IMG/VR virus record: IMGVR_UViG_3300031867_000002
Span: 32,001 to 96,000 of that record
Direction: 5' to 3' (one strand)
DNA: 64,000 bases
Source: a virus
Taxonomy: Duplodnaviria > Caudoviricetes
The stretch's first letter is position 1; the number at the start of each line of letters is the position of its first letter. Below, one piece after another: positions 6,588 to 62,772 of this stretch. Under the pieces are notes generated by a model. That model had not been told where the DNA came from and did not search any database. It was given only the letters and a program-made list of their open reading frames with translations. The translations under genes were made by a program, and so were the position numbers.

Positions 6588-6796
6588 ATTTATATGTTAT
6601 AGATTTGTAAAAGTTGAATATATTAGTTATATACAATTTAAGTGAGTAAGAGATAATATCTCAAGCTCCAGGAATAAGCAAGCTAGGATAAAACCTATGT
6701 TCCTGAGAAAACATATCAAATTTACTTTATGGTGTGGAGATAATATCAAGAGCACCAGCAGCTCTAAGAAGCTGCATCACCCTAAGGAGGGTTATT

Positions 6797-7186
6797 ATGA
6801 TGATGTACGAACCTAAAATGAAAAACGTAATCGACGCAACTGCAGCTGAACTCGATGCAATGAACTCGTTGAGAATGGCACTTATTCAGAAAGTGCTCGC
6901 TAACACTGCTAGACATATGCAGTTTGAGCAAGTTCCTAATTGCATTACTGAAACTATCGAAAAAGCAATCGCTGCTGATTCAATTGTTATCACTGTTGGT
7001 GACATTCAGACTCGCTTTGAAAGATTTTCGTTCATGGCTAAATGGGACAGAGATAGATGGTTTGATGAAATGTCGAATCTTTTTATCGTTATTGCTAAAG
7101 AAAATTGCTGGTTTGAAGATAAGATTGCTAGCGGATTTTGTTGGAAAAATCAGAAAGGAGAATTCTGCAAGCTCGAAATCGAGTAA
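6797..7186 (+). CDS. Hypothetical protein (early cassette gene)
   Basis: AAGGAGG RBS before ATG 6797, long structured leader, terminator at 7208-7240. Confidence 0.8.
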   Translation: MMMYEPKMKNVIDATAAELDAMNSLRMALIQKVLANTARHMQFEQVPNCITETIEKAIAADSIVITVGDIQTRFERFSFMAKWDRDRWFDEMSNLFIVIAKENCWFEDKIASGFCWKNQKGEFCKLEIE

Positions 7187-7207
7187 AGCAGAGTAGTCTT
7201 AACCAAA

Positions 7208-7240
7208 AAATAAAGCGCCCTTGGGCAAGGCGCTTTATTT
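7208..7240. terminator. Bidirectional intrinsic terminator
   Basis: AAATAAAGCGCC/GGCGCTTTATTT inverted repeat between convergent genes. Confidence 0.8.
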
Positions 7241-7957
7241 CTTGTCTATTCTCATCTTTTTCATGCTTAATGTATATGGTGTCATATAGTCTTGTTCTAA
7301 TAGATTACTCATAATACCGCTACCAATTAGATATACATCTACAGTATTACGTGCAACTTGGTTAGACTTATCACTCTCTAAGTCTTTCAATGATACTTGA
7401 CCAGTTGTATTAATCTGATTATACATTTTATTTTTTGCTTCCATATCATCTGCTTTAGCACGAGTAAACTCTTTTATTGTAGCATCCATATTCTGTAATA
7501 CCAAAGACTCTAACTCTCTATCAGATTCAACACCTTTTGCATTGCCAACAATTTGGCCTGTCTTAGGATTACGTACATCGATATTAGTATTATAACCAGA
7601 TTTCTTGGTTACAATCTGCTTGAGCTTTTTAAGGTTCAAGTAACCGACCATAGCTTCATTAGAATTAGTTACAGGTACACCATCTTTATTCTTATATATA
7701 CTAGGAAAAGATACCTTTTCTAATACAGGTACATTAATAGCCTTTAAAGCATCAATACATTTCTTAGGATTTGTTTCTCTGTCAAATGCGGTAGTTTGAA
7801 GTCTAAATGGTAATTTACGTTTACAAAATTCCATAAACTGTTGGTCAGACATCTTAGCAAACATTTCCTTATAAAAGTTTGAATTAGCCTTTGTTGGGTC
7901 AGCTGCATCAAAAAACTTATAAATTAAAGCCTCAGCTTTCTTACGATTAGCATTCAT
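7235..7957 (-). CDS. RNA polymerase beta subunit C-terminal fragment (probably virion RNAP)
   Basis: MVGYLNLKKLKQ, RNPKTGQ and ESDRELESL resemble the extreme C-terminus of beta; late promoter at 7983-7994. Confidence 0.7.
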   Translation of the reverse strand: MNANRKKAEALIYKFFDAADPTKANSNFYKEMFAKMSDQQFMEFCKRKLPFRLQTTAFDRETNPKKCIDALKAINVPVLEKVSFPSIYKNKDGVPVTNSNEAMVGYLNLKKLKQIVTKKSGYNTNIDVRNPKTGQIVGNAKGVESDRELESLVLQNMDATIKEFTRAKADDMEAKNKMYNQINTTGQVSLKDLESDKSNQVARNTVDVYLIGSGIMSNLLEQDYMTPYTLSMKKMRIDKK

Positions 7958-8008
7958 AATATCTATGCTCCTTTCTGGTTATTATGTAAAAGTTGATTTA
8001 TGCATATA

Positions 8009-8024
8009 TATATTATAATAGTGA
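8009..8024 (+). promoter_or_regulatory. Early promoter motif TATATTAT-N4-GTGA (representative copy)
   Basis: Same motif at 8595, 10167, 10744, 32758, 34253 and 62147 (+) and at 3539, 20968 and 26717 (-); variants at 25113, 49659 and 54199. It resembles the phiKZ early motif TATATTAC. Confidence 0.75.
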
Positions 8025-8097
8025 TAGCAACACAATGGTTCTATCTGAACTAGCGAGGAAACTAGATAGCAATAAAAATTTTTAAGGAGGGGTACCT

Positions 8098-8439
8098 ATG
8101 TTCGGTATCGTTAATTATGTAAATTTGACAAATGGCGTCTTAAGCGCCTATAAACACAAGACAGAGAAACACATGGAGGCAAATAACCCGAAAAAGGTTG
8201 CTATGTATATTTCTATTTACTATAGTATCAACCCTGTAGCTATAGCTGATGACAGAAACATGCATTCAATAAAGGAATCTGTTCGTAGAGATTTTGGGAC
8301 TGAGATTGAATATCTAAAAGAAAACGGATATAAAATTCGTCTTTATCCAGATTCTAATGGACAGATGCAGATTTTATTCGAGATTCCAGATGGGAAATTC
8401 TATTCAAGTACCTATCCAGAATGTGATGTTGAGTGGTAA
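8098..8439 (+). CDS. Hypothetical protein (early cassette gene)
   Basis: AAGGAGG RBS, own promoter and terminator. Confidence 0.8.
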   Translation: MFGIVNYVNLTNGVLSAYKHKTEKHMEANNPKKVAMYISIYYSINPVAIADDRNMHSIKESVRRDFGTEIEYLKENGYKIRLYPDSNGQMQILFEIPDGKFYSSTYPECDVEW

Positions 8440-8455
8440 CGTAACGTAAGTTTAA

Positions 8456-8495
8456 AAAAGAATACGACTGTCGTGAGACAGGCGTTTCTTTTTTG
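8456..8495 (+). terminator. Repeated terminator, copy 1 of 3
   Basis: AAAAGAATACGACTGTCGTGAGACAGGCGTTTCTTTTTTG; near-identical at 9181 and 11241. Confidence 0.8.
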
Positions 8496-8660
8496 TACTT
8501 AATATCATTATAATATAAATATTCACATAAGGAGGCAATACATGATATCTATGCTCCTTTCTAGTTTATATGTAAAAGTTGATTTATATACATATATATT
8601 ATAGATGTGTAAGTATAAGTTAATCATCTCATTTATAAAATATTAAAGGAGGAAAAAACA

Positions 8661-9155
8661 ATGAGAATTAAACTTTACACCGATTATGTAGACGGACGGA
8701 AAGTCTGCTACATAGCAAAAATGAAGAAGTCCGCCACTGAATCAAATATTGAATTTGACTATTATGTCAAAATCAATAGAGACCGCAATATCAAAAAAAT
8801 GACCGCTGTCGTAATCGATGATGACGATAAAGTCATTTGTAAAGATATGGTTAAAAAATGTTGGTCCGATGAAAAATCCACAAAGCAGTGTTATTTCGGA
8901 ATTACTGTATGTGGTAACCGCATTGTATCCGACACGGTATCAAATCTTCAGAATAAATCTGAAGGGAAAAATGTAGGCTTTATCGTCGAATATATCAAAG
9001 ACGAAAACGGGAACCAAATATATGATAGAGAGGGAAATCCCGTTTCAAACACGAGAAGAGTTATCCTTAATGGAAGAGTAAAAAATGTGGACTCTTCCAA
9101 AATGAGTTTCAAAATGCAAAAACTCATTCACGGGTACAACAAGTGGCACCTTTAA
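8661..9155 (+). CDS. Hypothetical protein (early cassette gene)
   Basis: AAGGAGG RBS, own promoter and terminator. Confidence 0.8.
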   Translation: MRIKLYTDYVDGRKVCYIAKMKKSATESNIEFDYYVKINRDRNIKKMTAVVIDDDDKVICKDMVKKCWSDEKSTKQCYFGITVCGNRIVSDTVSNLQNKSEGKNVGFIVEYIKDENGNQIYDREGNPVSNTRRVILNGRVKNVDSSKMSFKMQKLIHGYNKWHL

Positions 9156-9180
9156 TGAATGAGCTTCAATACTGATAATA

Positions 9181-9220
9181 AAAAGAATACGACTGTCGTG
9201 AGATAGGCGTTTCTTTTTTG
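9181..9220 (+). terminator. Repeated terminator, copy 2 of 3
   Basis: One mismatch to 8456-8495. Confidence 0.8.
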
Positions 9221-9225
9221 TCTTT

Positions 9226-9237
9226 AACATCATTATA
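9226..9237 (+). promoter_or_regulatory. Late promoter motif AACA-N6-TA (representative copy)
   Basis: AACATCATTATA. The same spacing occurs at 16659, 28514, 33375 and 44934 (+) and at 4987, 6587, 16611, 48305 and 49615 (-); AACT variants precede many other core genes. It matches the AR9 late promoter consensus. Confidence 0.75.
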
Positions 9238-9269
9238 ATATAAATCCACATAAGGAGGTAATATGTATT

Positions 9270-10127
9270 ATGAATAATCAAGTTATTGGTAATATTATTC
9301 TAGAATCATCTCAAGAGGTTCCAGAAGTTACTATTATAGCAGAAAAAAATAATAAGGTTACTGGTACTGGTATCATTCAGACTATTGGTGACGAGAACCG
9401 TAATGGTCGTATATATGAACTTAAAGATATGAAACCTGAAGTAGAAGGAGATAGAATCCAGAAAGAGCTCATTCCTACAGGCAATATGCGTGGTCATGAC
9501 GGACATCCTGCATCAACAGAACTATCGGTTCAATCTGTTATCAATCCTATGTTGTGCTCAGTTAAGTATAAAAAGATTTGGATTGAAGGAAATGAAATTC
9601 ATGCTAATTTCTGTGGTACCAACAATGAACCTGGTAAGGCATTTAATGCTGACTTATTAGATGGTGATAGACCTTCTTTTTCTCTTCGTGCATTAGGTTC
9701 TGTAGATAGAGAAAGAAATGGTAAATGTTATGTACGTAATATCAGAATCATTACATGGGATAGAGTTATCTTCCCTAGTCATAAGAGAGCATATACACAG
9801 GGATTAATAACATCTAAGAATGAAGCTGCTGTATTAGAATCTTGTGGATATGATATGCCACAATATGAAAAATTTAATGGTCCTAAAGCACTAAATGAGG
9901 GTGTTATTATTCCAATTGTAAATCAGCAGGTAGTAGACTATATTAAACAAGAGTCTGTTAATGTAAAGAGTATTCTTAATACATTTGATACATTATATGA
10001 ATCAGCAATTATCTGTGGAAATGGTAAACAAGTACAACTCAATCTTTCTGATAACAGAGGTAAGATTCTTGTTAACCTTGAACAGTATATCCAAGATGAG
10101 ATTATGAATTATTGTTGGAATAGTTAA
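9270..10127 (+). CDS. Prohead (head maturation) protease, T4 gp21-like
   Basis: ENRNGRIY, GH.GHP, PSFSLRALG and ITWDRVIFPSH. Confidence 0.88.
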   Translation: MNNQVIGNIILESSQEVPEVTIIAEKNNKVTGTGIIQTIGDENRNGRIYELKDMKPEVEGDRIQKELIPTGNMRGHDGHPASTELSVQSVINPMLCSVKYKKIWIEGNEIHANFCGTNNEPGKAFNADLLDGDRPSFSLRALGSVDRERNGKCYVRNIRIITWDRVIFPSHKRAYTQGLITSKNEAAVLESCGYDMPQYEKFNGPKALNEGVIIPIVNQQVVDYIKQESVNVKSILNTFDTLYESAIICGNGKQVQLNLSDNRGKILVNLEQYIQDEIMNYCWNS

Positions 10128-10232
10128 TTATTTGGGATGCTATCATAGCATCCCAAATTTCTTTTGTATATTATTAATGTGTAAGAGGTTACTGAAAACA
10201 GTTATAAAGACTACGACCTCTGGAGGTATATT

Positions 10233-10667
10233 ATGTTTGACATTATTCGTATTACATCTATTGGTTCGACTCCTGAAACTTTATATCAGGAACTTGAAAC
10301 AGAAGAAAAAGAATCTTCTCTTACAAGAGAAGAGTTCTGGAACGATATGACTACTGACACTATTTCAGAAGAGCACTTTAATTTTCAAGCTCTTTATAAC
10401 TCCGCTGAAGATGTTATTGTTATGCGGAGATTTATAAACAGACACACTGGGAAATCAACTAATCAAATCACCAATGCTGATGAGATTGAAAGAATTCTTA
10501 CAGATTTTCTTAATGGAAAACCTGTATACGATGATGACTACTCCATTTCAAGATGTAGGGTAATGCAGATTAGAGAAAGATATTATAGATATATCTGCCG
10601 TACAACTAAATCTATACTTTACCGTAGCTACCATGAGTTCTTAAAATGGGTGAAGAATATGAAATGA
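10233..10667 (+). CDS. Hypothetical protein (early cassette gene)
   Basis: GGAGGT RBS, early motif at 10167, terminator at 10674-10711. Confidence 0.78.
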   Translation: MFDIIRITSIGSTPETLYQELETEEKESSLTREEFWNDMTTDTISEEHFNFQALYNSAEDVIVMRRFINRHTGKSTNQITNADEIERILTDFLNGKPVYDDDYSISRCRVMQIRERYYRYICRTTKSILYRSYHEFLKWVKNMK

Positions 10668-10822
10668 TAGTATAAAAGAATCCGCTTTTATAAAAGCGGA
10701 TTCTTTTTTTGCTATGCTCCGTAAAAGTTTACTATGTTACTTATATATTATTTAAGTAAGAAGAGAGTCATATTGTTTAACAATGACTCAAAAAATATTG
10801 CTTTTGAAAGGAGCAGATTACT

Positions 10823-11239
10823 ATGATGACTACAATTAAAATTAACTCTAAAGAAATAAAAAGATTCAACGAAGAGGAAAAAAGAAACCATGAAAATATT
10901 TTTATGGTTTTAACCGATATTAAGGGTGATAAGTATTTAATAGCCCACGGCATTGGCGGTTACATAATCGCTGATGACGGTATCGGAAGAACACCGAGCC
11001 AGACTTATGCAAGATTAGTAAAGCTAGGTAAAATCGAAAACGGTGAGCATTTAAATATTGCTTGCTGTTTTGGAGGCGATATTGACAATGATTCTGAAAA
11101 TGTATCTATTGTCAATAATGAATCGGCACCATTATTCATAACACGTCAAGTGTTAAATAATGGCATAGGCAGATTAACGATGTTCACGAAAACAAAAATT
11201 CGTGACAGAGTTAAGGCTGCAATTTCAGTATTTATATAA
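10823..11239 (+). CDS. Hypothetical protein (early cassette gene)
   Basis: AAAGGAG RBS, early motif at 10744, repeated terminator at 11241. Confidence 0.78.
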   Translation: MMTTIKINSKEIKRFNEEEKRNHENIFMVLTDIKGDKYLIAHGIGGYIIADDGIGRTPSQTYARLVKLGKIENGEHLNIACCFGGDIDNDSENVSIVNNESAPLFITRQVLNNGIGRLTMFTKTKIRDRVKAAISVFI

Positions 11240-11240
11240 T

Positions 11241-11280
11241 AAAAGAAAACGACTGTCGGGAGATAGGCGTTTCTTTTTTG
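11241..11280 (+). terminator. Repeated terminator, copy 3 of 3
   Basis: AAAAGAAAACGACTGTCGGGAGATAGGCGTTTCTTTTTTG. Confidence 0.8.
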
Positions 11281-11326
11281 TCTCACTAGCACAACTTTTT
11301 AGTAATGAAAGGAGATGATTCCTAAC

Positions 11327-12520
11327 ATGGCTAATAACGCTAATTTGAAGATTACTGAGGTTATTGATAAAGAGATATATCCTATTGTACAAGGTGTATT
11401 GTCTAAGTCATTAAACAAGTATAAAGCACTCATGTCTAAGTTTATGAATGCTAGGTCTACATCTCTCTATGATACTTTCCCTGCAACTCGTTGTACTTAT
11501 GGACAACAAGATGCGGATGAGTTATATGCTGTTTTTGGTAAATCAGAAAGGGAATTACAAGAGATTATTAATAAGACTTACTATTCTCAAATTCCAAATT
11601 TTAATCCACGTACTGCTAAGAGTCCAGTAACTGTATTATGTATTACTATTATTAAGTATTTCATATCTAAGAATGATAAGAAGAATCTTGATGTAGCTAT
11701 TATATACATGTCTTTTTCTGGTGGATTTTATCCATCTATTCATTATGGCTCTTATCCTACTGCAGTACCAGCGGATTATAGATTCGTATGTGACTATGTA
11801 GTTAATAATGAGTTGTCTAATAAGTTTGATTTAAAAAGAACAGGTTCTGTAGTTGGAACCATTCAATCCATCGGTGCTACATGGGTTGATGCATATAAGG
11901 ATAAGTTCAAGGGAGTTACAGATGATGAAGAATATGTATATGTAATTCAACAGTTACATATGCGTATTAAGTCGTTTATTCAGAATACAGCAGAAATCTA
12001 TTATAAGTGTTATAAGAATCGTGAATATCTCACATATGATAGTGATGATATGTCTGAAGATAATTTTAGACTTACAGAGAATGATAGCACTAAGATTGAG
12101 GCTATTACTAACCGTGCAATGACATGGATTACTACACATGATGTAGATTATCGTCTATGTAAGATGTGTAGCGATAGTAATGTAAAGACAGAAGAAATCA
12201 AATCTATCATTGAGAGTATTGTTAAGAATACTGATAATATAGACACTGTAAGAGAGTTAGTTGCTCTTATTACAGCAAACTATTTTAAAGCTAGTAAGAA
12301 TAAAGATGTAAGAGATATTGAGTTTATCTCTTTCTCTATTAAGGCTAAGCCTAATACAAAAGACAAAGATATTCTACGACAGAATGAAATTATAGATACA
12401 TTCTTGTGTGAGAATAGTATTGCATATAATCGTCGTAAAAGTAGAGAAGCAACAAAGAATAGTTATAACAGAGCAGTTTTAACATACTTTGTTCTAGTAA
12501 TCAATCAATCTAATAAGTGA
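11327..12520 (+). CDS. Hypothetical protein, probably virion-associated
   Basis: Long ORF with late promoter variant AACTTTTTAGTA; start moved to 11327 for RBS spacing. Confidence 0.7.
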   Translation: MANNANLKITEVIDKEIYPIVQGVLSKSLNKYKALMSKFMNARSTSLYDTFPATRCTYGQQDADELYAVFGKSERELQEIINKTYYSQIPNFNPRTAKSPVTVLCITIIKYFISKNDKKNLDVAIIYMSFSGGFYPSIHYGSYPTAVPADYRFVCDYVVNNELSNKFDLKRTGSVVGTIQSIGATWVDAYKDKFKGVTDDEEYVYVIQQLHMRIKSFIQNTAEIYYKCYKNREYLTYDSDDMSEDNFRLTENDSTKIEAITNRAMTWITTHDVDYRLCKMCSDSNVKTEEIKSIIESIVKNTDNIDTVRELVALITANYFKASKNKDVRDIEFISFSIKAKPNTKDKDILRQNEIIDTFLCENSIAYNRRKSREATKNSYNRAVLTYFVLVINQSNK

Positions 12521-32698: not shown

Positions 32699-32757
32699 AA
32701 CAAGACCTCCTAAAAATATATTAATTGAAAGTTTCAGATTAAGTAATTATATATTTG

Positions 32758-33313: not shown

Positions 33314-33399
33314 TCTTAAAAAGAAACCGTGCTGTAGCCTCACGGTTTCTTTTTCCTAATTTTACATAATCTATAACACTTACATAAGGAGGTGATATT

Positions 33400-42628: not shown

Positions 42629-42639
42629 GAGGTGATTAT

Positions 42640-43194
42640 ATGTCTAGTTTTATTATAAATCCTAATAAGAGAGATGGATACCCTGTTATAGATGATAATA
42701 CACATGATTTTGGTCCTACACAAACTACTCCATATCCAAAAAGAGAATTCTATACTGGTTCTGATTTATTAGACGGGTATCCTATAATGGATGGTTGGAA
42801 AAGTTTTAGTCCAGTACAAGATAGCATATATCCAAGTAACATGTTTAGGATTGATGCTAGTAAAATGCAAGGCTATCCATCATTTTCATTCTTTGGAGAT
42901 TTTAGTCCAGTACAAGATAACATATATCCAAGTAACATGTTTAATATTGATGCTAGTAAAATGCAGGGCTATCCATCATTCTCATTCTTCGGAGATTTTA
43001 AAAATTTTGGAGCATTTGAATTTGCTGAAAATTTAACTAAGATAACAATACCTAGAAGTGTTCGGTATGTATGTGATTACGCTTTCTGGGGTTGTAATAA
43101 TTTAAAAAAAGTTCGTATACATCCAGATTGTGTATACTTTTCACATTCTTTTCCAGAAGAATGCGAAATTCAATTCTATGAAGAAAACGAATAG
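42640..43194 (+). CDS. DGYP-repeat protein with C-terminal BspA-type LRR (adaptor A)
   Basis: Four [D/Q]GYP repeats, then GAFEFAENLTKITIPRSVRYVCDYAFWGCNNLKKV. Confidence 0.7.
   Translation: MSSFIINPNKRDGYPVIDDNTHDFGPTQTTPYPKREFYTGSDLLDGYPIMDGWKSFSPVQDSIYPSNMFRIDASKMQGYPSFSFFGDFSPVQDNIYPSNMFNIDASKMQGYPSFSFFGDFKNFGAFEFAENLTKITIPRSVRYVCDYAFWGCNNLKKVRIHPDCVYFSHSFPEECEIQFYEENE
42805..42996 (+). repeat. 96-bp in-frame tandem duplication (2 copies)
   Basis: 42805-42900 matches 42901-42996 (FSPVQD.IYPSNMF.IDASKMQGYPSFSFFGD). Confidence 0.95.
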
Positions 43195-43246
43195 AATATA
43201 TGGCTAGCTCATATGAGCTAGCCTATTATGTAAAGGAGGTAAGTTT

Positions 43247-44305
43247 ATGGCTGTTACGCTTGAAGGACAAGGTACAGAAGATAGTCCTTACTTAGTATCT
43301 AATCCTGCTGAATTAAGAGCTGCTGTACAAATAGCTGATTGTTATATCAAACTTAAAACTGATATAGACTTTAATGACGATACTGTTATATGGGGATGGG
43401 AACCGCTTATGATATATTGCAAACAAATAGATGGTGATAATCATAAGATAACTAACTGTTATTGTTATCAAAAGTCTTTCATGATTGGTTGTGTTGGAGA
43501 AAACAATCCTTTTATTATGAAGAATACTATTATAGAAGCAATATATTTAACTAGTGCAACTCAAAGTAATGGTACTGGAGCTACTAATGGTGCATTTATT
43601 TTTCCATCATATTATAATATAAGTCGTATTTATATGTTTTTCTATGATTGCGATTTTAGAATTAAGTATTATGTAGAAAAAGACGATGCAATTCTTTTTT
43701 ATAATGCAGTTTCTTTTAATGGTGGTATGGTTTTTATTAGAAGATGTATATTAAATTTAGACATATTTCCAAATAATCATGACCAAATAAATATTTTTAA
43801 ATTAACTAGAACTGGTGTAGAAAGTAGTTTGATTAGTAATAATGAGATAAAGATAAATCTACATTTAGCTAATAATTTGTTTACTGGTAAAGAAGCCTTT
43901 AATAGAGATACAAGTTTAACTTCAAATTCTAAATCTTTATTACATATTTATTACACAGGCGGTAGTTATGATATTCCATATTTTACAAATAATGCTACAT
44001 TTATTAATATAGATGGTATAAATGAGAACTTACCATCTAAACTATGTATTTTATTATCATACGCTAAATCAATATCTAATTGTTATTTTATACTAAATGA
44101 TGTTAAAGGTAACTATCTTTCTTCTAAAGAGATACATTTTAAAATATTTTATGGAGGAGCTTGTTCTACATCTTGTTTTATGAATAATAAAGCTAAGTTC
44201 TATAATAAAAGCCTTACAAATAATGAACCGAACATGCATATTCTGACAGATGAACAATGTAAGAATCTACAAGAATTACTTAATATAGGATTTCTTGTTG
44301 TATAA
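43247..44305 (+). CDS. Putative adhesin/receptor-binding protein B
   Basis: GQGTEDSPYLV, YIKLKTDIDFND, IDG, IIEAIY and C-terminal LTDEQCKN...L..GF. Confidence 0.6.
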   Translation: MAVTLEGQGTEDSPYLVSNPAELRAAVQIADCYIKLKTDIDFNDDTVIWGWEPLMIYCKQIDGDNHKITNCYCYQKSFMIGCVGENNPFIMKNTIIEAIYLTSATQSNGTGATNGAFIFPSYYNISRIYMFFYDCDFRIKYYVEKDDAILFYNAVSFNGGMVFIRRCILNLDIFPNNHDQINIFKLTRTGVESSLISNNEIKINLHLANNLFTGKEAFNRDTSLTSNSKSLLHIYYTGGSYDIPYFTNNATFINIDGINENLPSKLCILLSYAKSISNCYFILNDVKGNYLSSKEIHFKIFYGGACSTSCFMNNKAKFYNKSLTNNEPNMHILTDEQCKNLQELLNIGFLVV

Positions 44306-44318
44306 GAGGTGATGTATT

Positions 44319-44906
44319 ATGGCTGGTGGTGGAACTTTACAAGAACCTGAAATCATAACAAAAGCTTGGTGGGAATCTGATTTTACTTTAAATCCAGATG
44401 TATTAGACGGGTATCCTTCTTTTGCTGAATTAGGTAATTTTAAAGATAATACTATGGATTCTAAATATAACTTTACTAGTCATGTACAAGACTTAAATGG
44501 TTATCCATCTTTAAGATTAGGTCCTATAGTAGATTATAATTTTAATTCACATTACGTTTTTGCTACAGGAACAGACTATTTAAACGGTTATCCATCTTTA
44601 CAACAAGAGTATGTAAATATAATAGACGACTTTCTTATATATTCTAAGTATGTATTCTCTCATCAACAAGATAATACTTATATAGATGGATATCCAACAT
44701 TAGGACAACAAGATTTTGAACATTTTGGTGTTGCTAAAGATTGTACATTAGAAGAAGTTGTTATTCCAAAGTCTGTTATATTTATAGCAGACTGGGCATT
44801 CTATAATTCTAATATAACATCTGTAAAGATAAATAGACATTGTGTTTATTATCCTCATTCATTTCCTCCTGGATGTCATATTAAGCCTTATAATGATGAG
44901 GGATGA
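44319..44906 (+). CDS. DGYP-repeat protein with C-terminal BspA-type LRR (adaptor B)
   Basis: Four [D/N]GYP repeats, then LEEVVIPKSVIFIADWAFYNSNITSVKI..CVYYPHSFP. Confidence 0.7.
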   Translation: MAGGGTLQEPEIITKAWWESDFTLNPDVLDGYPSFAELGNFKDNTMDSKYNFTSHVQDLNGYPSLRLGPIVDYNFNSHYVFATGTDYLNGYPSLQQEYVNIIDDFLIYSKYVFSHQQDNTYIDGYPTLGQQDFEHFGVAKDCTLEEVVIPKSVIFIADWAFYNSNITSVKINRHCVYYPHSFPPGCHIKPYNDEG

Positions 44907-48368: not shown

Positions 48369-49583
48369 TTATTCTCCGAAAGCTTCCATTGCGTTCATTT
48401 GTGTAAATTTTTCAGTACTGTCATGAAAGGACTTCATCATGATGTTCTTCACAACACTAGCTAATTGTGGTGTTGCAGTGCCGATGTTTGGTGTATCGAG
48501 TAGATAGTATAAGTCTCCAGCACACTTATTACAGATACATTCATTTTTACATAAGCTACTAAAACGTATCTTTACCGTTTTACCTTTATATTTATCCATG
48601 TTAGTACTATCTAGTCTTACTAGTTTATTACCTTCTACTATATAAGAATACATAAGCATATTTAGATAATTTTTATCTAATGTAACAGTAATAGTTCTTT
48701 TAGTTCCACAATCACTACCCTTAGGACCAAGCTTAATATGCTGGAATGCTAGTAAGAACTTCTTTTCTTCATAACCCCAGATAGCAGTTTTTCTAGCACG
48801 AGCATATGGACCTGCGGCAAGTGAGTTAGACATAGCAGCATAGTCGTCTTTAGATACACCTTCTGAATAACAAGAAGTGATAATGTTATATCCCTTTGTT
48901 GGGTCTGGGTCTTTAGCAGCACCTTTCATAACATACATGTTTTTAAAGTTATTACCTAAGTCAGCACCAGCACCAGCTTTAATATTATCCCAAGCGGGGT
49001 CATCTTTAAGTTCTTCTTCACAATACTGGAGAAGTTCTTGCTCTATCTTCTCTGTTACAAATGCATCGCCAGCAGCAATTTCTTTTTCATACTTCTTTAA
49101 GAGTTCTTTCTTCTTTGGTTCAATCTTCTTAGATATTAATAGCATATCTTCAGAAGATGTAGTACAAATTACAGAAGAGTAGTTCATGAACTTTTGAAGA
49201 CACATAATCCACTGTTTGAATTGTGGTACAGTAACTCTATCTTCTAGAATAGCAAGAGAAAGTTTATCTTTCATAGTACCATAAGCTTTTTTATTGAACG
49301 GCTCATTGAAGTAACCAAGTTCATTAAACAAATCAGGATAGTCAATACAAGCCTTATTAAAAAACCATGAACCTACAGTAGTAGTGAAAGTATTCTTGTT
49401 ATTATGATATGACTTAGGTGGTACTTCCATGATGTCATAAGTATTAAACTTCTTCTTACCATTAAACTCACCAAAGCACTCCATAAAAATAGAAGTCTTT
49501 AAACATTCTTTACTAGAAAGAGAGATAAGATATTCAGCTTCTTCTTTCTTAATGAGTCTACCTTTTCTAACTTTATTTGCCAT
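48369..49583 (-). CDS. RNA polymerase beta' subunit, middle/C-terminal part (probably virion RNAP)
   Basis: TTVG..FN, bridge-helix-like TAIWGYEEK, DCGT, C....ICNKCAG and trigger-loop-like MMKSFH; late promoter at 49615. Confidence 0.85.
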   Translation of the reverse strand: MANKVRKGRLIKKEEAEYLISLSSKECLKTSIFMECFGEFNGKKKFNTYDIMEVPPKSYHNNKNTFTTTVGSWFFNKACIDYPDLFNELGYFNEPFNKKAYGTMKDKLSLAILEDRVTVPQFKQWIMCLQKFMNYSSVICTTSSEDMLLISKKIEPKKKELLKKYEKEIAAGDAFVTEKIEQELLQYCEEELKDDPAWDNIKAGAGADLGNNFKNMYVMKGAAKDPDPTKGYNIITSCYSEGVSKDDYAAMSNSLAAGPYARARKTAIWGYEEKKFLLAFQHIKLGPKGSDCGTKRTITVTLDKNYLNMLMYSYIVEGNKLVRLDSTNMDKYKGKTVKIRFSSLCKNECICNKCAGDLYYLLDTPNIGTATPQLASVVKNIMMKSFHDSTEKFTQMNAMEAFGE

Positions 49584-49811
49584 ATAAATATACCTCCTTG
49601 TGTATATATGATATTACTAAATTGTTGAGGTTGTGTAAAACTAAGAGAAGATACTTGTTATATAATAATAGTGAATAAGACAGAAGCAACGTCTATCTGT
49701 CGAGCGGTCCGTGCATACGCTAGGGGTAGCACGAGGCGTAGTTTATCTACGTTCCCAACCTAAGGGAAAAGGAAAACGTTATGAAAAAGAACGAAAAAAA
49801 GAGTACGTATT

Positions 49812-50264
49812 ATGAACGCATTAAGATTAGCTATCAGTCACTCGATGGCAGAAAACAAATTCACAATTGAATACTGCTGCAACGAGTGTACTGAAAAATG
49901 CAACGACTTTATGGTTTCATTTTACGACCATAATCACAGGCATCTTGTCTCAAACTGGCTCGTAAATAGCAGCGAGCCGTATCCGTATTCAACCAGTGGA
50001 ACTATCAATAATCTGGCTAATTGGTTGGATATTGACATCAACCATCTGATGTGGTCTCAGGAGGATGTTCTCCTCCATAAGGTGCGGTATATCCGTATCG
50101 GCAGGAGGTCGTTTATTGAAACAGAAGACGGCTATTTTTACAACCAAGAAAGGGGGTTGGAATACGATGTATTTTCTGGAGCCAAGCGTTCAATCGCTTG
50201 GCCCAGTCGATATATCAATTCATGGTATAGCGACCCTGAGCTTGACAGATACTATCTGGGGTAA
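49812..50264 (+). CDS. Hypothetical protein (early cassette gene)
   Basis: Early variant at 49659, structured leader, terminator at 50296-50332; RBS is weak. Confidence 0.65.
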   Translation: MNALRLAISHSMAENKFTIEYCCNECTEKCNDFMVSFYDHNHRHLVSNWLVNSSEPYPYSTSGTINNLANWLDIDINHLMWSQEDVLLHKVRYIRIGRRSFIETEDGYFYNQERGLEYDVFSGAKRSIAWPSRYINSWYSDPELDRYYLG

Positions 50265-50411
50265 ATTCACATTCTCTACTGCTGCTACGACTGATAAAAA
50301 CAGACAGCCTTTGACAAGCGGTTTGTTTTTTGTAATATTTGTCATAAATGTATATTATAAAAGTGGTAAGTGAGCAACTCTATGATAATATGTTTAAGGA
50401 GGTATCTATAT

Positions 50412-50876
50412 ATGAAAGTAGTTGCTATTAATAATACCGTTGAGAAGCCTACTCCTAAGTATGTGGCTCTCACAGATGTAATGAAAGAAAAGCCTCTTCC
50501 TAAAGAGGTAACCGACCCTAATATCATTAGAAGTAAAGTTCTGGTGATAGAGAATCTTAGTGTTACAATAACACAAGATTTTGATGATGATGTAAATTTT
50601 GTCATTAAGACAGACCCTGGTATATTGTCTGACCATAAGACAATTCCAGAACTTGACATTACTGCAAAAGAAGACATTGAGTTTGACGAAGATATTACAA
50701 AAGCAAAACTTGAAAGTATTATTCGTCGTTGCGGTGTCTTAGACAAATATGCAAAATATTTTGTACAAGACCCAGAGATTGTAATCAATTGTTATACTTT
50801 GACAATCAAGAAGACTTATAAGTATTTCAATGAATTCAAAGAGGGTATCTTAATTGGAGGTGACATTTTTATGTAA
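50412..50876 (+). CDS. Hypothetical protein
   Basis: AAGGAGG RBS before MKVVAI. Confidence 0.72.
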   Translation: MKVVAINNTVEKPTPKYVALTDVMKEKPLPKEVTDPNIIRSKVLVIENLSVTITQDFDDDVNFVIKTDPGILSDHKTIPELDITAKEDIEFDEDITKAKLESIIRRCGVLDKYAKYFVQDPEIVINCYTLTIKKTYKYFNEFKEGILIGGDIFM

Positions 50877-50923: not shown

Positions 50924-52570
50924 ATGTCAAAAGTATGCACGCCATCTATACCATCTACAATGACTGAGTCATTACAACCACAACCAATAGTAACTCATAC
51001 AGAGAATTATGATTATTTGTATGAAAGATTAAGTAATTGGTATGAATTTGAAATTAGAGGTAATTATCCTAACAATCAATCACTTGATGAATTTGGACGC
51101 CCGAAGTATAGATATGAGTCTAGAATTGAAGTGATTGACTTTGATGAGGAATGTGAATCAGACCTTATTAAAGGTATTGGATTTATCATTACTAAAAAAC
51201 AAGACATCAAAAAAGATATTCGTAGTAATGATAGTATTTTTAGTAGTAGATATGGATTACAGATTGATGACATGACACCATTTGGAGATGTCTATAAATG
51301 TGATTGTGGACGTATGCAAATGAAAGTGAACAAAGGATTGTTTTGTCCTATATGTCATACAAAAGTTAAATATGTAGGTAGCGACTTTAGTATTACTGGT
51401 TGGATTAAAATCAATGAACCTCATTTTGTAATTCATCCTAACATGTTTAAGAAATTGATAAGCTTTATTGGTAAGAAAAATCTCGATTCTATTATTAATC
51501 TAGACTATAAGATTGATGAAGATGGATTTCAAATTAAGAAAGACACATTGAAGTCTAATCCATTTATCGGTATCGGATTTGAAGAATTCCGTAATCAATT
51601 TGATGAAGTGATGGAGTTCTTTAAAAATAAGCATAAGAATAATCAGAATAAGCTTGAATTCTATGATGATATTATGTCTCATAGAAATCTTATTTTTACT
51701 CACAGCTTACCTGTATATACGTCTCAATTAAGACCATATAGTATTAAGAAGAATAGATTTAGTTTTGAAGGTAATAATGCGTTATATAATGTAATAGCGG
51801 GTACAGCAGCAAAGCTAAATAAATCTCAATTCAATTCTCGTGGTAGAGCAAAATCTACAAATCAATTAATCTATGATATCCAAATGAGATATATGGAAAT
51901 ATATGCTGATTTGGAAAAGATTATTGCTCAGAAGAAAGGTTATGTTAGAGCATTAAATGGTGGTAGATATAATTTTACTGCTCGTAATGTAATTATTCCT
52001 GACCCAGATTTGAGAATTGATGAGATTATCTTACCATATTCTACTCTTATTGAATTGATGAGTTTAACAATCATTAATATCTTGACAAAAACCTATAGTC
52101 CTAGCGAAGCATATCGTATCTGGGACGAAGCAAGAATTGAATATAATCCTATGATTGCTGACCTGATTCAATCTATTATTGATAGTCAGTATGTAGGTAT
52201 TATATTAAATAGAAATCCTAGTATCTCACCAGCATCTATTATCCAGCTTCATCTTATTGGAGTTACTAAAGATGACACTTATAGTTGTAGAGTTCCTCAT
52301 GAAATTCTTAAATCTATGGGTGCAGATTTCGATGGTGATACTTTGAATATCATGCTTATAATTAATGATAACTTTTTGATTAATGCAGCTCGTTTGTTTA
52401 ATCCTAGACTGTCTATGCAAATCAGTTATAATGATGGTATGTTTAATGCTAACATGGCATTACAGACAGATACAATGATTTGTATCAATAGCTTTACTCA
52501 GCTTGGTATCGATGAGATTACAGAAGAAGAGTATGCTATGATTGAAGCTTGTCAGATGTGTGAAGATTAA
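50924..52570 (+). CDS. RNA polymerase beta' subunit N-terminal part with catalytic motif
   Basis: Zn finger CDCG...CPIC, RYNFTARNVI.P, LNRNPSI and GADFDGD. Confidence 0.92.
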   Translation: MSKVCTPSIPSTMTESLQPQPIVTHTENYDYLYERLSNWYEFEIRGNYPNNQSLDEFGRPKYRYESRIEVIDFDEECESDLIKGIGFIITKKQDIKKDIRSNDSIFSSRYGLQIDDMTPFGDVYKCDCGRMQMKVNKGLFCPICHTKVKYVGSDFSITGWIKINEPHFVIHPNMFKKLISFIGKKNLDSIINLDYKIDEDGFQIKKDTLKSNPFIGIGFEEFRNQFDEVMEFFKNKHKNNQNKLEFYDDIMSHRNLIFTHSLPVYTSQLRPYSIKKNRFSFEGNNALYNVIAGTAAKLNKSQFNSRGRAKSTNQLIYDIQMRYMEIYADLEKIIAQKKGYVRALNGGRYNFTARNVIIPDPDLRIDEIILPYSTLIELMSLTIINILTKTYSPSEAYRIWDEARIEYNPMIADLIQSIIDSQYVGIILNRNPSISPASIIQLHLIGVTKDDTYSCRVPHEILKSMGADFDGDTLNIMLIINDNFLINAARLFNPRLSMQISYNDGMFNANMALQTDTMICINSFTQLGIDEITEEEYAMIEACQMCED

Positions 52571-52626: not shown

Positions 52627-53577
52627 ATGAGAATATTAACTAATACTAATACAGGTTGTATCATTTCCGATACAGAACTTTTCCTTGAATATCTTTATGT
52701 TGGAGATTATGGTAAAGAAAATAATATTAAAGCAGACTTTCTTGGTTATACTAAAAGAATTGAAAAAGTAGAACATAGACCAGTAGATATTACAGATAAA
52801 CTGGTTGTTACTGTTTCTAGTCAAAAGGGTTGTCCTATGAAGTGTAACTTCTGTGATTGTCCTAAACTTGGTTTTCATGGTAATCTTAGTATTTATGAAT
52901 TAGTATCTGAAATTACAACAGCTATTTCACTTTCTAAGATTTCTCACGGTAAGCGTCTAAATGTTCATTTTGCTCGTATGGGAGAACCGACGTTCAATTT
53001 TAATGTTATAGATGCTGCAAGAATTATTGGTAGTATGATAAATGATACTTTTATGGAATATCATCCAGTAGTATCTACAATGATGCCTAAAAATAATAAA
53101 CGTCTAAAAGAATTCTTATTTGGTTGGACAGAGTTATTTTCAATATCTGATTGGAATGGTGGCATCGGACTTCAGTTCTCTATCAATACACTTGATGAAG
53201 AGGAAAGAAATAAGATGTTCGACAATAAGTCTCTGTCTCTTGAAGAAATTGGTAATATTATTAACGAACTTCCTATGCCAATAGGTAGAAAATATACACT
53301 AAACTTTGCAGTTACATCTAAGTCTAATCTAGATGTAAACTTAATGAATAAGTATTTTGATAAAAATAAATGCATTGTTAAAATTACACCTATTCATAAG
53401 ACACATGAAGCTGTAGATAATAATTATGAGATTATTACGGACTTCAATGTATATGAGAAATTTGAAAAGCCGTTGGTAGAAGATGGTTGGGATGTAATAG
53501 TATTTATACCATCTAAAGAAGAAGATGAGGACAGAATTACTTGTGGTAATTCTTTAATTGTAATGGGTTTATCTTAA
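52627..53577 (+). CDS. RlmN/Cfr-like radical SAM protein
   Basis: VSSQKGCPMKCNFC, GNL..E, RMGEP, VST, LQFS and C-terminal TCG. Confidence 0.82.
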   Translation: MRILTNTNTGCIISDTELFLEYLYVGDYGKENNIKADFLGYTKRIEKVEHRPVDITDKLVVTVSSQKGCPMKCNFCDCPKLGFHGNLSIYELVSEITTAISLSKISHGKRLNVHFARMGEPTFNFNVIDAARIIGSMINDTFMEYHPVVSTMMPKNNKRLKEFLFGWTELFSISDWNGGIGLQFSINTLDEEERNKMFDNKSLSLEEIGNIINELPMPIGRKYTLNFAVTSKSNLDVNLMNKYFDKNKCIVKITPIHKTHEAVDNNYEIITDFNVYEKFEKPLVEDGWDVIVFIPSKEEDEDRITCGNSLIVMGLS

Positions 53578-54123: not shown

Positions 54124-54353
54124 ATTTTTTAATAAAGGAAACCCAGTGCTTAATTGCACTGGGTTTCTTTTTTTTGTAAAAGTTTACTATGTTACTTGTA
54201 TATAATAATAATGAATAGAAGATAATAATCTGCTGTTCAACTGGAGCGTGTAAAAAGTCTACGTTCCAGATTCCGTATATATTTATTTAAATCTTTTAGG
54301 TAAGAGGCCTAGTCAGCCCACCACTTAGTGGTCAGTCCTAGGAGGACAAAATT

Positions 54354-54731
54354 ATGTTATACGCAATTAAGCTCGCAGCTATTTTGAAAGCAACAAATCT
54401 TATGCTTGATAGCGAACTCGCTATTATTGATGACGGAAATTATCCTGATAAGGCGGCAGACAATATTCAGAGAGTTCGTTTTCTCAACTGTGTTGAAACG
54501 CTGAAAGCTGGTTTCGAGAATGATAAATATATAATTAAACTCGTGCCAGTTAGATTCAACAACACTGATATCTTTTATCCACTGATTGATTCAGATAAGC
54601 GGCAGAGATATACAGCTAAAGCTAAACCTCTTGCTGAAACTCTTGAAAAGTTCAGCAATAAATTAGGAGTCGAGGTCAGAGACCCTTCAGAGTTTGGCGA
54701 ATTCCAAAAATTTTTGATGAAGGAGGTGTGA
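54354..54731 (+). CDS. Hypothetical protein (early cassette gene 1)
   Basis: AGGAGG RBS; early variant at 54199. Confidence 0.75.
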   Translation: MLYAIKLAAILKATNLMLDSELAIIDDGNYPDKAADNIQRVRFLNCVETLKAGFENDKYIIKLVPVRFNNTDIFYPLIDSDKRQRYTAKAKPLAETLEKFSNKLGVEVRDPSEFGEFQKFLMKEV

Positions 54732-54734
54732 AAT

Positions 54735-55034
54735 ATGCTGTTTAACGAACTTAAAGAAATCGAAAAAAGCGGCGCTCGTGAAAGAGCGTTAATCCACAGA
54801 CAATGTGAAGAAGAGATTGTTGAAATCCGTCGCAAGAAGGACGAAGCAATTGAAAAGATTGACCGTCAGCATAAACAGACAATGGCATCTATTGAGGCTG
54901 AGCATACAACAAAAATGAAAATGCTCAATGAAAAAAGTAAAGATATTCGCGCAGCGATTGAAGAGGCAAAAGCAAATGGAAACTTTTCAAAGGTATGTGA
55001 ACTGCTCGAACAAATGGCTAAAAGCATCACTTAA
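54735..55034 (+). CDS. Coiled-coil hypothetical protein (early cassette gene 2)
   Basis: AGGAGGT RBS; terminator at 55051-55085. Confidence 0.75.
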   Translation: MLFNELKEIEKSGARERALIHRQCEEEIVEIRRKKDEAIEKIDRQHKQTMASIEAEHTTKMKMLNEKSKDIRAAIEEAKANGNFSKVCELLEQMAKSIT

Positions 55035-55087
55035 ACTTAATGAGAATGAAAGAAGACTGGACTTTACATCCAGCCTTCTTTTTTGTA

Positions 55088-60919: not shown

Positions 60920-60950
60920 TCATATCCTCCTTTCTATAGTATTTTAATAC

Positions 60951-61409
60951 TTAGAGAGGTGTATTTTTATTATGGTCAATAACAAAGTTAGTTACTTTGA
61001 AATATACACGCTTTGCAATGATGTCATAAATCGCCTCTTCTTTATAATACAATGCTAATTGTTTTAGCATTACAGGAGATATCCTTTCGCTTACTAACGA
61101 ACAAATATCTTTACTTATCTGAATCTCTTCATCTTCTTTAATGTACCAATCTGTTTTATAGATTAGATTCATTAAAGAATATTCTTGGAAACAGCTTTCA
61201 ACTACTGTATCTAAACGAGTTTCAATATCACTTGTTATATTAAGATGTGTATCAATATCGTATTGTCTTTGGTCTAATTCTGCATATTTAAATGCTAGCC
61301 ATTTCTTAAATGAATTAAATAAGCTAATCTCAAAAACCAGTACCAGGATTAGGATTATTCCAATAATGATAAGGGTTTGAAGACTGAGTTGTGTAGATAG
61401 TACTTCCAT
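60951..61409 (-). CDS. Membrane-anchored hypothetical protein
   Basis: N-terminal TM segment LIIIGIILILVLVFEI; AAAGGA RBS. Confidence 0.7.
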   Translation of the reverse strand: MEVLSTQLSLQTLIIIGIILILVLVFEISLFNSFKKWLAFKYAELDQRQYDIDTHLNITSDIETRLDTVVESCFQEYSLMNLIYKTDWYIKEDEEIQISKDICSLVSERISPVMLKQLALYYKEEAIYDIIAKRVYFKVTNFVIDHNKNTPL

Positions 61410-62076
61410 AGTTCCTTTCACTCCAATTCTTAATTTCATTTGCTAGGGTGAGTAAGTCATTATCAGATGAACCTGTATCTTTAAAGGCGAGTCTGATGTA
61501 ATATAATAACTTATTACAAATTTCTGGTGTAATACCATTATAATAATTCTTTATAAGTTCTGTCCATTTGCCAAATACTTGATTTGGGTGAACATAGAAT
61601 AATTCATCAGCATGATACAGCTGATGTACTGTTTTAGACATCATAATAATAGGTACTCTGTTATGTTTATGCTCTTCTCTTAATGCACCTACAATATGGA
61701 AAGTTGATACCTGACCATATGTATTAATATAGTGCTCACAAATCATAAGAGCTATGTCAAAGATAGTTAATATAACATGATTCATTTCAAGTTCTGCCAT
61801 ATCAGAATTAATGTTATGCATAAAAGCACAATGGTCTAAACCAAGTTCCATTAAACTAGCTTTATATGCTTTATAGAATCTGCTATGTCTAAATTGAGAA
61901 ATAGCATTATTAATAAATCTACCATAACTATCAATATCTGTAAGAGATTCTTTTGTTTGCATTAAAGATATTTCATAAGCAGAAGATGGGCTTCTTAACG
62001 TAGGATTTCCGTTACTTAAGTACATAGTAATATCAGGGAAATCATTTCCATTAAGGATTATTTTATCTTGTTCCAT
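61330..62076 (-). CDS. HNH-like fold protein, paralog of 16689-17456
   Basis: FRHSRFY, CAFMHN, LEMNH..TIFDI and MSKTVHQLYH; AGGAGG RBS. Confidence 0.6.
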   Translation of the reverse strand: MEQDKIILNGNDFPDITMYLSNGNPTLRSPSSAYEISLMQTKESLTDIDSYGRFINNAISQFRHSRFYKAYKASLMELGLDHCAFMHNINSDMAELEMNHVILTIFDIALMICEHYINTYGQVSTFHIVGALREEHKHNRVPIIMMSKTVHQLYHADELFYVHPNQVFGKWTELIKNYYNGITPEICNKLLYYIRLAFKDTGSSDNDLLTLANEIKNWSERNYGSTIYTTQSSNPYHYWNNPNPGTGF

Positions 62077-62146
62077 ACAATTACCTCCTAACATTATTAA
62101 GTCATTATTAAATAGTTATTGATGTGAAAGTTAAAGGATTTGAATA

Positions 62147-62248
62147 TATATTATTATAGTGATTAGTAGAGGTCAGACAATGCTAATCTGAACTGCACGA
62201 GGATATGCAGAATATTAATCTTTTAGCTTTTGAAAGGAGCTATATATC
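62147..62248 (+). repeat. Early promoter plus conserved structured 5' leader, copy 2
   Basis: TAGTAGAGGTCAGACAATGCTAATCTGAACTGCACGAGGATATGCAGAATAT...GCTTTTGAAAGGAGCTAT. Confidence 0.85.
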
Positions 62249-62734
62249 ATGGAAAACAAGAAAAATGAACAACAGGTAAAATTTGAAGATTATCTTAAAA
62301 ATCTCTACGAAAAAGACAAGCCCACGACAGAAGAATTAACTCAATGGGGTTGGAACTTTAAAGTCGGCTCTGCTTTACAGATTGACCTTATTGATGCTGA
62401 AACAGACTCCGTCAAAGTTCGTTATCTCGGAAAAGAATTCCGAGTAACAATGATTGACAATGACTTGCTGGACAAAATTTTTAAGACAATTGAAGATGTT
62501 ATTTATACAACACTTCTTCTTAACTGCGACAACATGAAAGAAGAGGAAAGACAAGAGTTACTTTTCAAGTTTACAAGGTTCAAAACTCTCCTCGAAGAAC
62601 AGTATTCAAGGGGGAAGAAGAATTACAACAACAAGATTGTTGAATTAGCTAGAAAAGGCCCTGTTATTAATTCTCCTTCTTCAGATTTTAAATTTCCGAT
62701 AGTAAATACTCCTGGTAGTGAACGGAGCAAATAA
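62249..62734 (+). CDS. Hypothetical protein (early cassette gene)
   Basis: AAAGGAG RBS; terminator at 62741-62772. Confidence 0.78.
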   Translation: MENKKNEQQVKFEDYLKNLYEKDKPTTEELTQWGWNFKVGSALQIDLIDAETDSVKVRYLGKEFRVTMIDNDLLDKIFKTIEDVIYTTLLLNCDNMKEEERQELLFKFTRFKTLLEEQYSRGKKNYNNKIVELARKGPVINSPSSDFKFPIVNTPGSERSK

Positions 62735-62740
62735 AGAATA

Positions 62741-62772
62741 AAAGAACGGGACTTTACATCCCGTTCTTTTTT
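62741..62772. terminator. Terminator sharing the GGACTTTACATCC loop with 55051-55085
   Basis: AAAGAACGGGACTTTACATCCCGTTCTTTT. Confidence 0.8.

Follow-up and report, generated by a model that had tools for sequence, protein, structure and literature searches.

Tailed phages, the lambdoid phages among them, carry morons in the sense of Hendrix and colleagues, i.e. promoter-gene-terminator units located between two genes that are adjacent in a relative; in the classical case, transcription is from a host promoter and frequently takes place in the prophage. In T4-type phages, PeSL cassettes place a terminator and an early promoter before orphan open reading frames (ORFs) and bound insertions and deletions (indels) between close relatives, and a mini-circle intermediate was proposed for them (PMC2839356, PMC4122927). 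For Bacillus phage AR9, a transcriptome paper (Lavysh et al. 2017, PMC5312081) reported 41 early promoters and the virion-polymerase early consensus AAATATATATTAT-(6N)-G+1; neither turnover of cassettes nor sharing of leaders or terminators is described there. A literature search returned PeSL-type shuffling for T4-like phages only, one jumbo-phage paper having the term in its reference list, and no description was found of how polymerase-carrying jumbo phages, which are largely independent of host transcription, acquire and test early genes. Here, ten short plus-strand units were analysed in a stretch of 64,000 nucleotides (the window), comprising bases 32001-96000 of the single-contig virus genome IMGVR_UViG_3300031867_000002 (224,632 bp, 31.7% GC). 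At a probability of about 0.7, they are taken to be insulated early transcription units of an AR9-related jumbo phage with PeSL- or moron-like turnover; crossing over within their shared parts and early expression are what we infer.

Among described systems, the units most resemble the PeSL cassettes of T4-type phages (Arbiol et al. 2010, Comeau et al. 2014). Common to both are a composite intergenic terminator-promoter motif with a Shine-Dalgarno sequence and start codon at its end, a preference for orphan or variable genes, indels and replacements between relatives that are bounded by the motifs, one motif in the empty and two in the filled site, and a UvsX-type recombinase encoded by the phage. 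Unlike PeSL, which have a strong host sigma-70-type promoter (-35/-10) and are concentrated in hyperplastic regions, the units have a promoter matching the phage virion-polymerase consensus, occur singly or in pairs in about 15 dispersed slots, carry long, conserved, structured 5' leaders, and belong to an AR9-related jumbo phage instead of a T4-type phage. By definition, units are also morons, as seen for 62118-62732 against the relative G001 and for the slot 48369|50412 (named by its flanking genes) against the relatives G002-G004; they differ from morons in lying in a lytic jumbo phage, in being served, presumably, by the phage's own early polymerase, and in their dispersed homologous ends. 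Integron cassettes are similar in their promoter-proximal, unrelated small ORFs, conserved boundaries and growth by stacking, whereas the units gave no integrase match and no attC/attI site, have their own promoter and terminator each, and use many slots instead of one platform.

Judged by its genes, the genome is that of a jumbo phage distantly related to AR9; the nearest named phages were Bacillus phages PBS1 and AR9, with 33% amino acid (aa) identity in an RNA polymerase subunit. Besides the promoter consensus, AR9 and the present phage share a similar promoter number (about 30-38 here vs. 41), early genes on both strands among late genes, and strong terminators at operon ends, and they differ in that the RNA polymerase beta subunit is only about 33% identical and many units here are single-gene. 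The finding extends a known principle, with good documentation, and establishes no new one: the clade shows a PeSL-like evolutionary solution on a different, phage-private promoter.

Architecture and promoter of the units

The initial annotation had described ten plus-strand cassettes composed of early promoter, hairpin-rich leader, one or two short ORFs and terminator, and on reading each interval all ten were found in place with this layout. Each unit consists of a promoter core TATATTAT-N6-G, a 52-153 nt leader, a strong Shine-Dalgarno sequence with a single ORF behind it (two ORFs in unit 9), and a G+C-rich terminator hairpin with a T-run at its 3' side. TATATWAT, 6 nt and G can be aligned in nine units, and unit 1 has a weaker version.

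Positions of units are those of the window. Unit 1 (6604-7240) starts with the box TGTAAAAGTT at 6606 and a weak promoter (predicted transcription start site (TSS) at about 6644, position weight matrix (PWM) score 12.3), followed by a hairpin leader, an ORF at 6797-7186 (129 aa) and a terminator at 7207-7240. In unit 2 (7952-8545), the box at 7985 and the TSS at 8023 precede an ORF at 8098-8439 (113 aa) and a terminator at 8455-8496; its left module takes in the reverse-complement ribosome-binding site (RBS) and start of gene 7235-7957. Unit 3 (8538-9269; TSS 8609) has an ORF at 8661-9155 (164 aa) and a terminator at 9180-9221, after which the protease upstream region follows. The early promoter of unit 4 (10130-10711; TSS 10181) adjoins the protease terminator 10130-10158 and was found again, together with the leader, at genome position 156148 on the minus strand; the ORF is at 10233-10667 (144 aa) and the terminator at 10674-10707. 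Unit 5 (10712-11283) has the box GTAAAAGTTTACTATGTTACTT at 10721, its TSS at 10758, an ORF at 10823-11239 (138 aa) and a terminator at 11240-11283.

Unit 6 (32750-33355) combines a TSS at 32772 (PWM score 25.1) with a two-hairpin leader, an ORF at 32861-33313 (150 aa) and a terminator at about 33320-33355. The promoter of unit 7 (34245-35231; TSS 34267) adjoins the terminator of gene 33400-34206, and a leader of 145 nt, an ORF at 34412-35107 (231 aa) and a terminator at about 35197-35231 follow. Unit 8 (49635-50332; TSS 49673, leader 139 nt) encodes 150 aa at 49812-50264 (42.6% GC), and directly 3' of its terminator (50296-50332) lies the early promoter (TSS 50365) of the conserved gene 50412-50876. 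In unit 9 (54134-55085), a terminator at 54134-54171 adjoins the box at 54175, which the promoter follows (TSS 54213), and behind a leader of 141 nt two ORFs at 54354-54731 (125 aa) and 54735-55034 (99 aa) end in a bidirectional terminator at 55049-55081. Unit 10 (62118-62772) has the box variant TGTGAAAGTT at 62123, a TSS at 62161, a leader 96% identical to that of unit 6, an ORF at 62249-62734 (161 aa) and a resident bidirectional terminator at 62740-62770. As this terminator already exists in the cassette-less relative, unit 10 is not fully self-contained in the sense initially proposed. Terminators adjoin promoters at 10130-10181, 10674-10758, 34200-34267, 50296-50365 and 54134-54213.

The PWM was built from the unit promoter sites and used to scan both strands of the whole genome, which gave 19 + 19 matches on the two strands, compared with 2-4 per strand in shuffled sequence; 32 matches lie 16-228 nt upstream of a same-strand gene. 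Four relatives had 22-29 matches each and the most distant relative (G005) only 2, so that its early promoter must differ. The unit promoter directly matches the AR9 early consensus, i.e. an A/T-rich block ending in TATATTAT, 6 nt, and a G start. By analogy, the phage's own virion RNA polymerase would read it as a general early promoter, both the identity of the polymerase and the early timing being drawn from AR9. The promoter initially described on the units is present, but it is not unit-specific, since conserved genes on both strands use the same motif: it precedes the RNA polymerase beta-like gene 1234-3480 (TSS 3532, minus strand), gyrA (TSS 20961, minus strand), conserved minus-strand genes at 26710 and 28516, and the conserved gene 50412. 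The ten units thus appear to be a subset of the phage's early regulon. A sigma-70 promoter reading was rejected, as the corresponding scan was unenriched and missed the unit promoters, and no consistent spacing separated the TTGA-like box from the -10-like block.

The common orientation of the ten units is a regional feature, since minus-strand variable units with this promoter occur elsewhere in the genome; genome-wide, variable early units were on the plus strand at 6.7 to 112.5 kb, on the minus strand at 125 to 156 kb and on the plus strand again at 208 kb. Within the window, the conserved early genes are mostly on the strand opposite to the cassettes (the whole genome spans -25242 to 176206 in window coordinates).

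Cargo exchange at slots between conserved genes

The genome under study (G000) was compared with five complete relatives from IMG/VR (G001-G005), using our own simple gene calls. G001 is collinear with G000, 83% of the sequence aligns, and core proteins are 80-98% identical; G005 has 41% GC and core proteins about 30-68% identical. The protease was present at 13 loci in IMG/VR, ranging from 88% down to 54% aa identity. Among GenBank phages, 6000-12000 had no megablast match, and close relatives came from IMG/VR and metagenomes only.

Conservation of the same ORFs at the same slots, as for core genes, was not seen in eight window slots and five genomes. From genome to genome the slots nearly always carried cargo of another family, in most cases a singleton, and 5/8 were empty in at least one genome; the flanking core genes were collinear and 80-98% identical (aa) to the nearest relative. 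Genes right behind an early promoter were absent from G001 or less than 50% identical there in 14/32 cases, compared with 29/164 for other genes (p = 0.002). Empty slots were found at 48369|50412 in G002-G004 (119-122 nt, one promoter), at 61330|62776 in G001 (93 nt), at 6299|7235, the slot of unit 1, in G003 and G004 (155-173 nt), and at 31586|33400, the slot of unit 6, in G002 (94 nt). The unit 10 slot has other cargo in G002 and G003, the unit 7 slot holds five different cargo families in five genomes, and unit 5 is missing from G001, where the slot is filled by one cassette with the same terminator at its end. An empty slot retains one promoter and a filled slot has the order promoter-cargo-terminator-promoter, which is the geometry expected from recombination between two promoter copies that removes or adds a unit.

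Breakpoints of homology were taken from the nucleotide comparison of G000 with G001. In the slot of units 2-3, homology extends to 8023 (TSS) and resumes at 8455 or 9179 (first terminator base); in that of units 4-5 it runs through promoter and leader to 10235 (start codon) and resumes at 11239. For unit 7, a homologous stretch at 34150-34383 gives way to unmatched cargo, and homology returns at 35132; for unit 8, it extends to 49669 and resumes at 50344; in unit 9, it is lost across 54707-55048. At unit 10, it extends to 62117 and resumes at 62733, leaving a clean indel with 62118-62732 (615 nt) in G000 vs. 9 nt in G001. The slots of G001 contain the same left module (TGTAAAAGTTG and promoter) and the same right module (terminator, TCATTATAATATAAAT and RBS) with different ORFs in between. 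Eleven of the 62 non-homologous segments start within -50 to +150 of an early TSS (1.9 expected by chance, maximum 8 in 2000 permutations, p = 2.5e-6), the exact positions varying between TSS, leader end, start codon, and before or after the terminator. Cassettes are exchanged at slots, with breakpoints at the modules, as genome comparison demonstrates. To this extent the cassette-exchange system of the initial annotation stood; its further element, crossing over inside the modules, keeps the standing of a conjecture.

Shared modules and their origin

The repeated parts listed in the initial annotation were recovered. Exact copies of the left-end box TGTAAAAGTT occur only at 6606, 7985, 8571 and 54175, each placed 24-29 nt before the promoter core; copies with a single mismatch lie at 10720 and 62123. 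Units 5 and 9 share their left ends (10718-10772 matching 54173-54227). One terminator is present in three copies (8455, 9180 and 11240), and the loop GGACTTTACATCC is common to the terminators at 55057 and 62747. The leader common to units 6 and 10 is 96% identical over 46 nt (32758-32803 vs. 62147-62192) and continues to 32836/62224 at 82%. These similarities far exceed chance: the window has 182 repeated 14-mers vs. 46 in Markov resamples, and 41% of the repeated 14-mer positions lie inside the ten units, which span 11% of the window. Terminator-like sites were 4-fold above shuffles and include 10130, 10674, 54134, 55049 and 62740 (the last two bidirectional); our own crude terminator finder (484 hits) was judged too permissive and kept out of the statistics. 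The shared parts are far more alike than a functional consensus needs, and their similarity breaks off sharply, either at the start codon or where the terminator A-tract begins. The units had also been thought richer in GC than the core, and GC at third codon positions (GC3) is indeed higher (0.31 vs. 0.22, p = 1e-5); conserved early genes are equally GC-rich (GC3 0.28), so the excess marks the early class and not cassettes or foreign origin.

Units 2 and 3 form a tandem pair in which the complete divergent intergenic slot, with the CAT of gene 7235-7957 on one side and the protease ATG on the other, occurs twice. The left module of unit 3 is a second copy of 7952-8017 (8538-8603, 66 nt, 88%), and its terminator with the protease upstream region is 94% identical to 8455-8520, likewise over 66 nt. 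After the unit 2 terminator, a copy of the protease upstream region continues as far as an overlapping CATG at 8541-8544, where the two slot copies, each with unrelated cargo, meet (context 7952-9272). Unequal exchange between phages with different slot alleles could have produced this arrangement, and so could a circularised slot that integrated. A search of the fetched relative loci for the exact sequence of the tandem junction found no copy.

The first 45 nt of every predicted early transcript of five genomes were folded, and the first three nt were paired in 51/73 variable and 40/49 conserved units, compared with 30-35% in shuffles. For the leader of units 6 and 10, a third copy was located at genome position 208206, and more were present in G002-like genomes and on a 38-kb metagenome contig. 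Its first stem occurs as GAATAG/CTATTC or GATTAG/CTAATC and its second as CTCCA/TGGAG, CTGCA/TGCAG, CCCCA/TGGGG or CTAGA/TCTAG, compensatory changes which indicate that the structure is under selection. The six ORFs behind copies of this leader have no pairwise similarity. Scanning IMG/VR and JGI for the exact 18-nt leader core yielded a single new phage copy (L079) and a further four in G002-like genomes, of which L076 and L077 are in G002 itself and L081 and L082 in a G002-like contig of 218,629 bp; the matches L078 and L080 were discarded as unrelated GC-rich chance hits. In Rfam, only tRNA matched, with no known RNA family for the window leaders. A 5'-terminal stem-loop is a classical mRNA stabiliser, and that of the unit leaders probably acts as a stabiliser or regulatory handle.

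Clustering of the regulatory pieces of all early units across the five genomes gave a terminator family (16 copies, 6 slots) joined to 15 cargo families, an upstream-box family (9 copies, 8 slots), and a long leader family (about 160 nt, G002-G004) of 14 copies with 13 unrelated cargo families in 12 slots. The long leader has a 5'-terminal stem with compensatory changes, a GATAGT/ACTATC inner hairpin, a TGCTCG/TGAGCA hairpin and a conserved CTATGTTCC block; examples among loci L029-L073 are L038:2405-2567 (minus strand) and L044:475-642 (plus strand). Box, leader and terminator families overlap only in part, hence the modules combine in different ways.

These observations are consistent with the following mechanism. 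The injected virion RNA polymerase would start at the G 6 nt downstream of TATATTAT, giving a transcript that opens with a 5'-terminal stem-loop and from which a strong Shine-Dalgarno sequence would drive synthesis of a small protein of no known family; an intrinsic terminator, often bidirectional, would shield the adjoining genes. About 15 intergenic slots between conserved genes take such units, and dispersed promoter/leader and terminator copies (40-170 nt, 80-96% alike) serve as portable homology, by which UvsX-type machinery, together with microhomology joins at Shine-Dalgarno/ATG, could insert, delete, stack or replace cargo with the core genes undisturbed. The candidate enzyme for such short-homology recombination between modules is the UvsX-like recombinase encoded at 3562-4842 on the minus strand (PHROG phrog_97, E = 1e-37), which is conserved in all five relatives. 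In a bolder version, put forward tentatively and with the odds against it, the modules would be dedicated adapters of a private exchange network: a polymerase restricted to the clade would make any captured ORF an insulated immediate-early gene, moving as a unit, possibly via circles, among about 15 slots and co-infecting relatives, and the two- or three-helix leader would be a travelling functional RNA (stabiliser or phage regulator site).

The main rival is allelic replacement via the flanking genes: the units would be ordinary early genes whose likeness is imposed by polymerase and ribosomes, and their cargo would change by flanking-gene crossovers plus fast drift. Several observations weigh against module-borne exchange and on this side. 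The promoter is general and used by conserved genes as well, and sequence analogy with AR9 is the ground on which promoter class, early timing and the function of terminators are predicted. Breakpoints at the edges of modules are also expected if crossovers fall in flanking core genes and the modules are conserved in every allele. Of the shared variable families, 59/62 keep their slot, and movement of cargo between slots is rare (3/62, at 27-37% identity). In situ, G001 has cargo of units 6 and 9 at 44-59% identity next to neighbours at 80-90%, as fast drift would have it, and unit 8 cargo is kept in its slot at 70-80% in closer relatives, so that long vertical inheritance of cassettes is possible. 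Orthologous terminators of G000 and G001 are more alike than paralogous copies within a genome, which makes module dispersal old and any ongoing between-slot exchange conjectural. What makes ordinary early genes an unlikely account, if one still to be reckoned with, is that a leader remains 96% identical up to the start codon and is then followed by ORFs without detectable similarity, that a 66-nt stretch at 94% takes in non-consensus spacer, that one leader or terminator type occurs in up to 12 slots with unrelated cargo, and that clean presence/absence differences and the tandem slot duplication at CATG are found.

A dedicated mobility system, either integron-like site-specific recombination or homing conversion aimed at slot sequences, would agree with the discrete slots reused in all relatives and with the precise CATG junction of the tandem pair. 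It would also agree with two HNH_3 (PF13392) endonuclease-like genes outside the window, G000:16003-16407 (plus strand) and G000:129660-130292 (minus strand), both themselves variable and in cassette slots between conserved genes, where homing may add to turnover, a further point to set against exchange by modules. Apart from these two genes, whole-genome profile searches gave no match to HNH or GIY-YIG, nor to tyrosine or serine recombinases (PF00589, PF00239); 0/10 cargo proteins match a nuclease or recombinase family, the breakpoints vary with no one fixed core site, and no attC-like imperfect inverted repeat common to the units was found, which renders such a system improbable. Still slightly less credence is due to duplication and divergence, by which a single ancestral early unit spread by copying to many slots and kept its regulatory ends, the cargo ORFs being paralogues diverged beyond recognition. 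Module families are in fact dispersed within each genome, a few cargo families have distant paralogues in other slots (e.g. fam 139 and fam 143), and locus L007 has two tandem paralogues of the unit 3 cargo; but the cargo proteins range from 96 to 231 aa without pairwise BLAST similarity, leaders of up to 96% identity are incompatible with cargo of the same age decayed to zero similarity, and box, leader and terminator types combine independently. Insulated early units with PeSL- or moron-like turnover are therefore preferred.

Cargo proteins and neighbouring genes

No similarity between the cargo ORFs was detectable by BLAST clustering, as the initial annotation had it. The ten cargo proteins gave nothing credible against PHROGs and Pfam; in the ESM Atlas, the protein of 34412-35107 had no usable hit and that of 8661-9155 only matches with TM < 0.4 on a poor model, and AlphaFold2 on the unit 8 cargo with six homologues gave an unusable model (mean pLDDT 55). 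The role in host takeover or anti-defence that had been proposed for the cargo is unsupported, since the cargo matches no known family, and is a guess from timing, size and turnover; most likely, the cargo provides accessory early functions under fast diversifying pressure. Besides about 15 insertion-tolerant, transcriptionally insulated slots, the clade offers a natural library of dozens of unrelated, presumably immediate-early ORFs, a shortlist for host-takeover or counter-defence proteins in uncultured gut phages. Slots could serve as landing pads, and promoter, 5' stem-loop leader and bidirectional terminators as expression parts, in engineering related phages.

The unit 1 cargo belongs to one of the three families that changed slot: its homologs (34%) lie elsewhere in G002 and elsewhere again in G003, which with G000 makes three slots. 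The cargo of unit 2 is an orphan. The unit 3 cargo has homologs in the same slot of L007 (two copies, 65% and 47%) and of L002/G002 (31%), and that of unit 5 a 36% homolog in the same slot of L005 and L006. Unit 6 cargo is 44% identical in the same slot of G001, where neighbours are 82-90% identical. The first ORF of unit 9 is 59% identical in G001 and the second is an orphan. For unit 8 cargo, the homologs at 70-80% are in the same slot of the closer relatives L074 and L075, and one of these relatives has an extra 134-aa gene between terminator and next promoter. The homologues of this cargo start 10-18 residues earlier (MKKNEK...), the corresponding start codon at 49781 being out of frame with ORF 49812; an A-run at 49793-49799 lies between the two, and a frameshift, sequencing error or slippage is possible. 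In locus L007, the slot between RNA polymerase fragment gene and protease contains a 300-aa Cys-rich ORF (L007:3800-4702) with no Pfam match, behind which the usual left module and the two tandem paralogues of unit 3 cargo follow; its reading as a homing endonuclease was dropped for lack of Pfam support.

Split RNA polymerase beta/beta' fragments are encoded in the window at 1234-3480, 7235-7957, 48369-49583 and 50924-52570, and PHROGs annotate several such fragments in the genome. Searching with PF00562 retrieved two beta-like genes, G000:33234-35480 and one inside a 1745-aa ORF, which would fit the virion plus non-virion polymerase layout of AR9-type jumbo phages. Further window genes encode gyrase A and B, a DnaB-like helicase, a prohead protease and, as a weak match, a tubulin/PhuZ-like protein (4997-6292). 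Immediately behind the RNA polymerase beta'-like gene lies a 316-aa ORF (52627-53577) that G001, L074 and L075 lack; since it does not have its own early promoter, it represents another kind of variable gene than the cassettes. The block 41552-44906 is absent or very divergent in all relatives and contains, inside ORF 42640-43194, a 96-nt tandem duplication in perfect register (42804-42995, 94% identical). Between units 6 and 7, a 268-aa gene at 33400-34206 has a PHROG match to a MazF-like growth inhibitor (E = 4e-10) and, in contrast to the adjoining cassettes, is kept in four relatives (59-82%).

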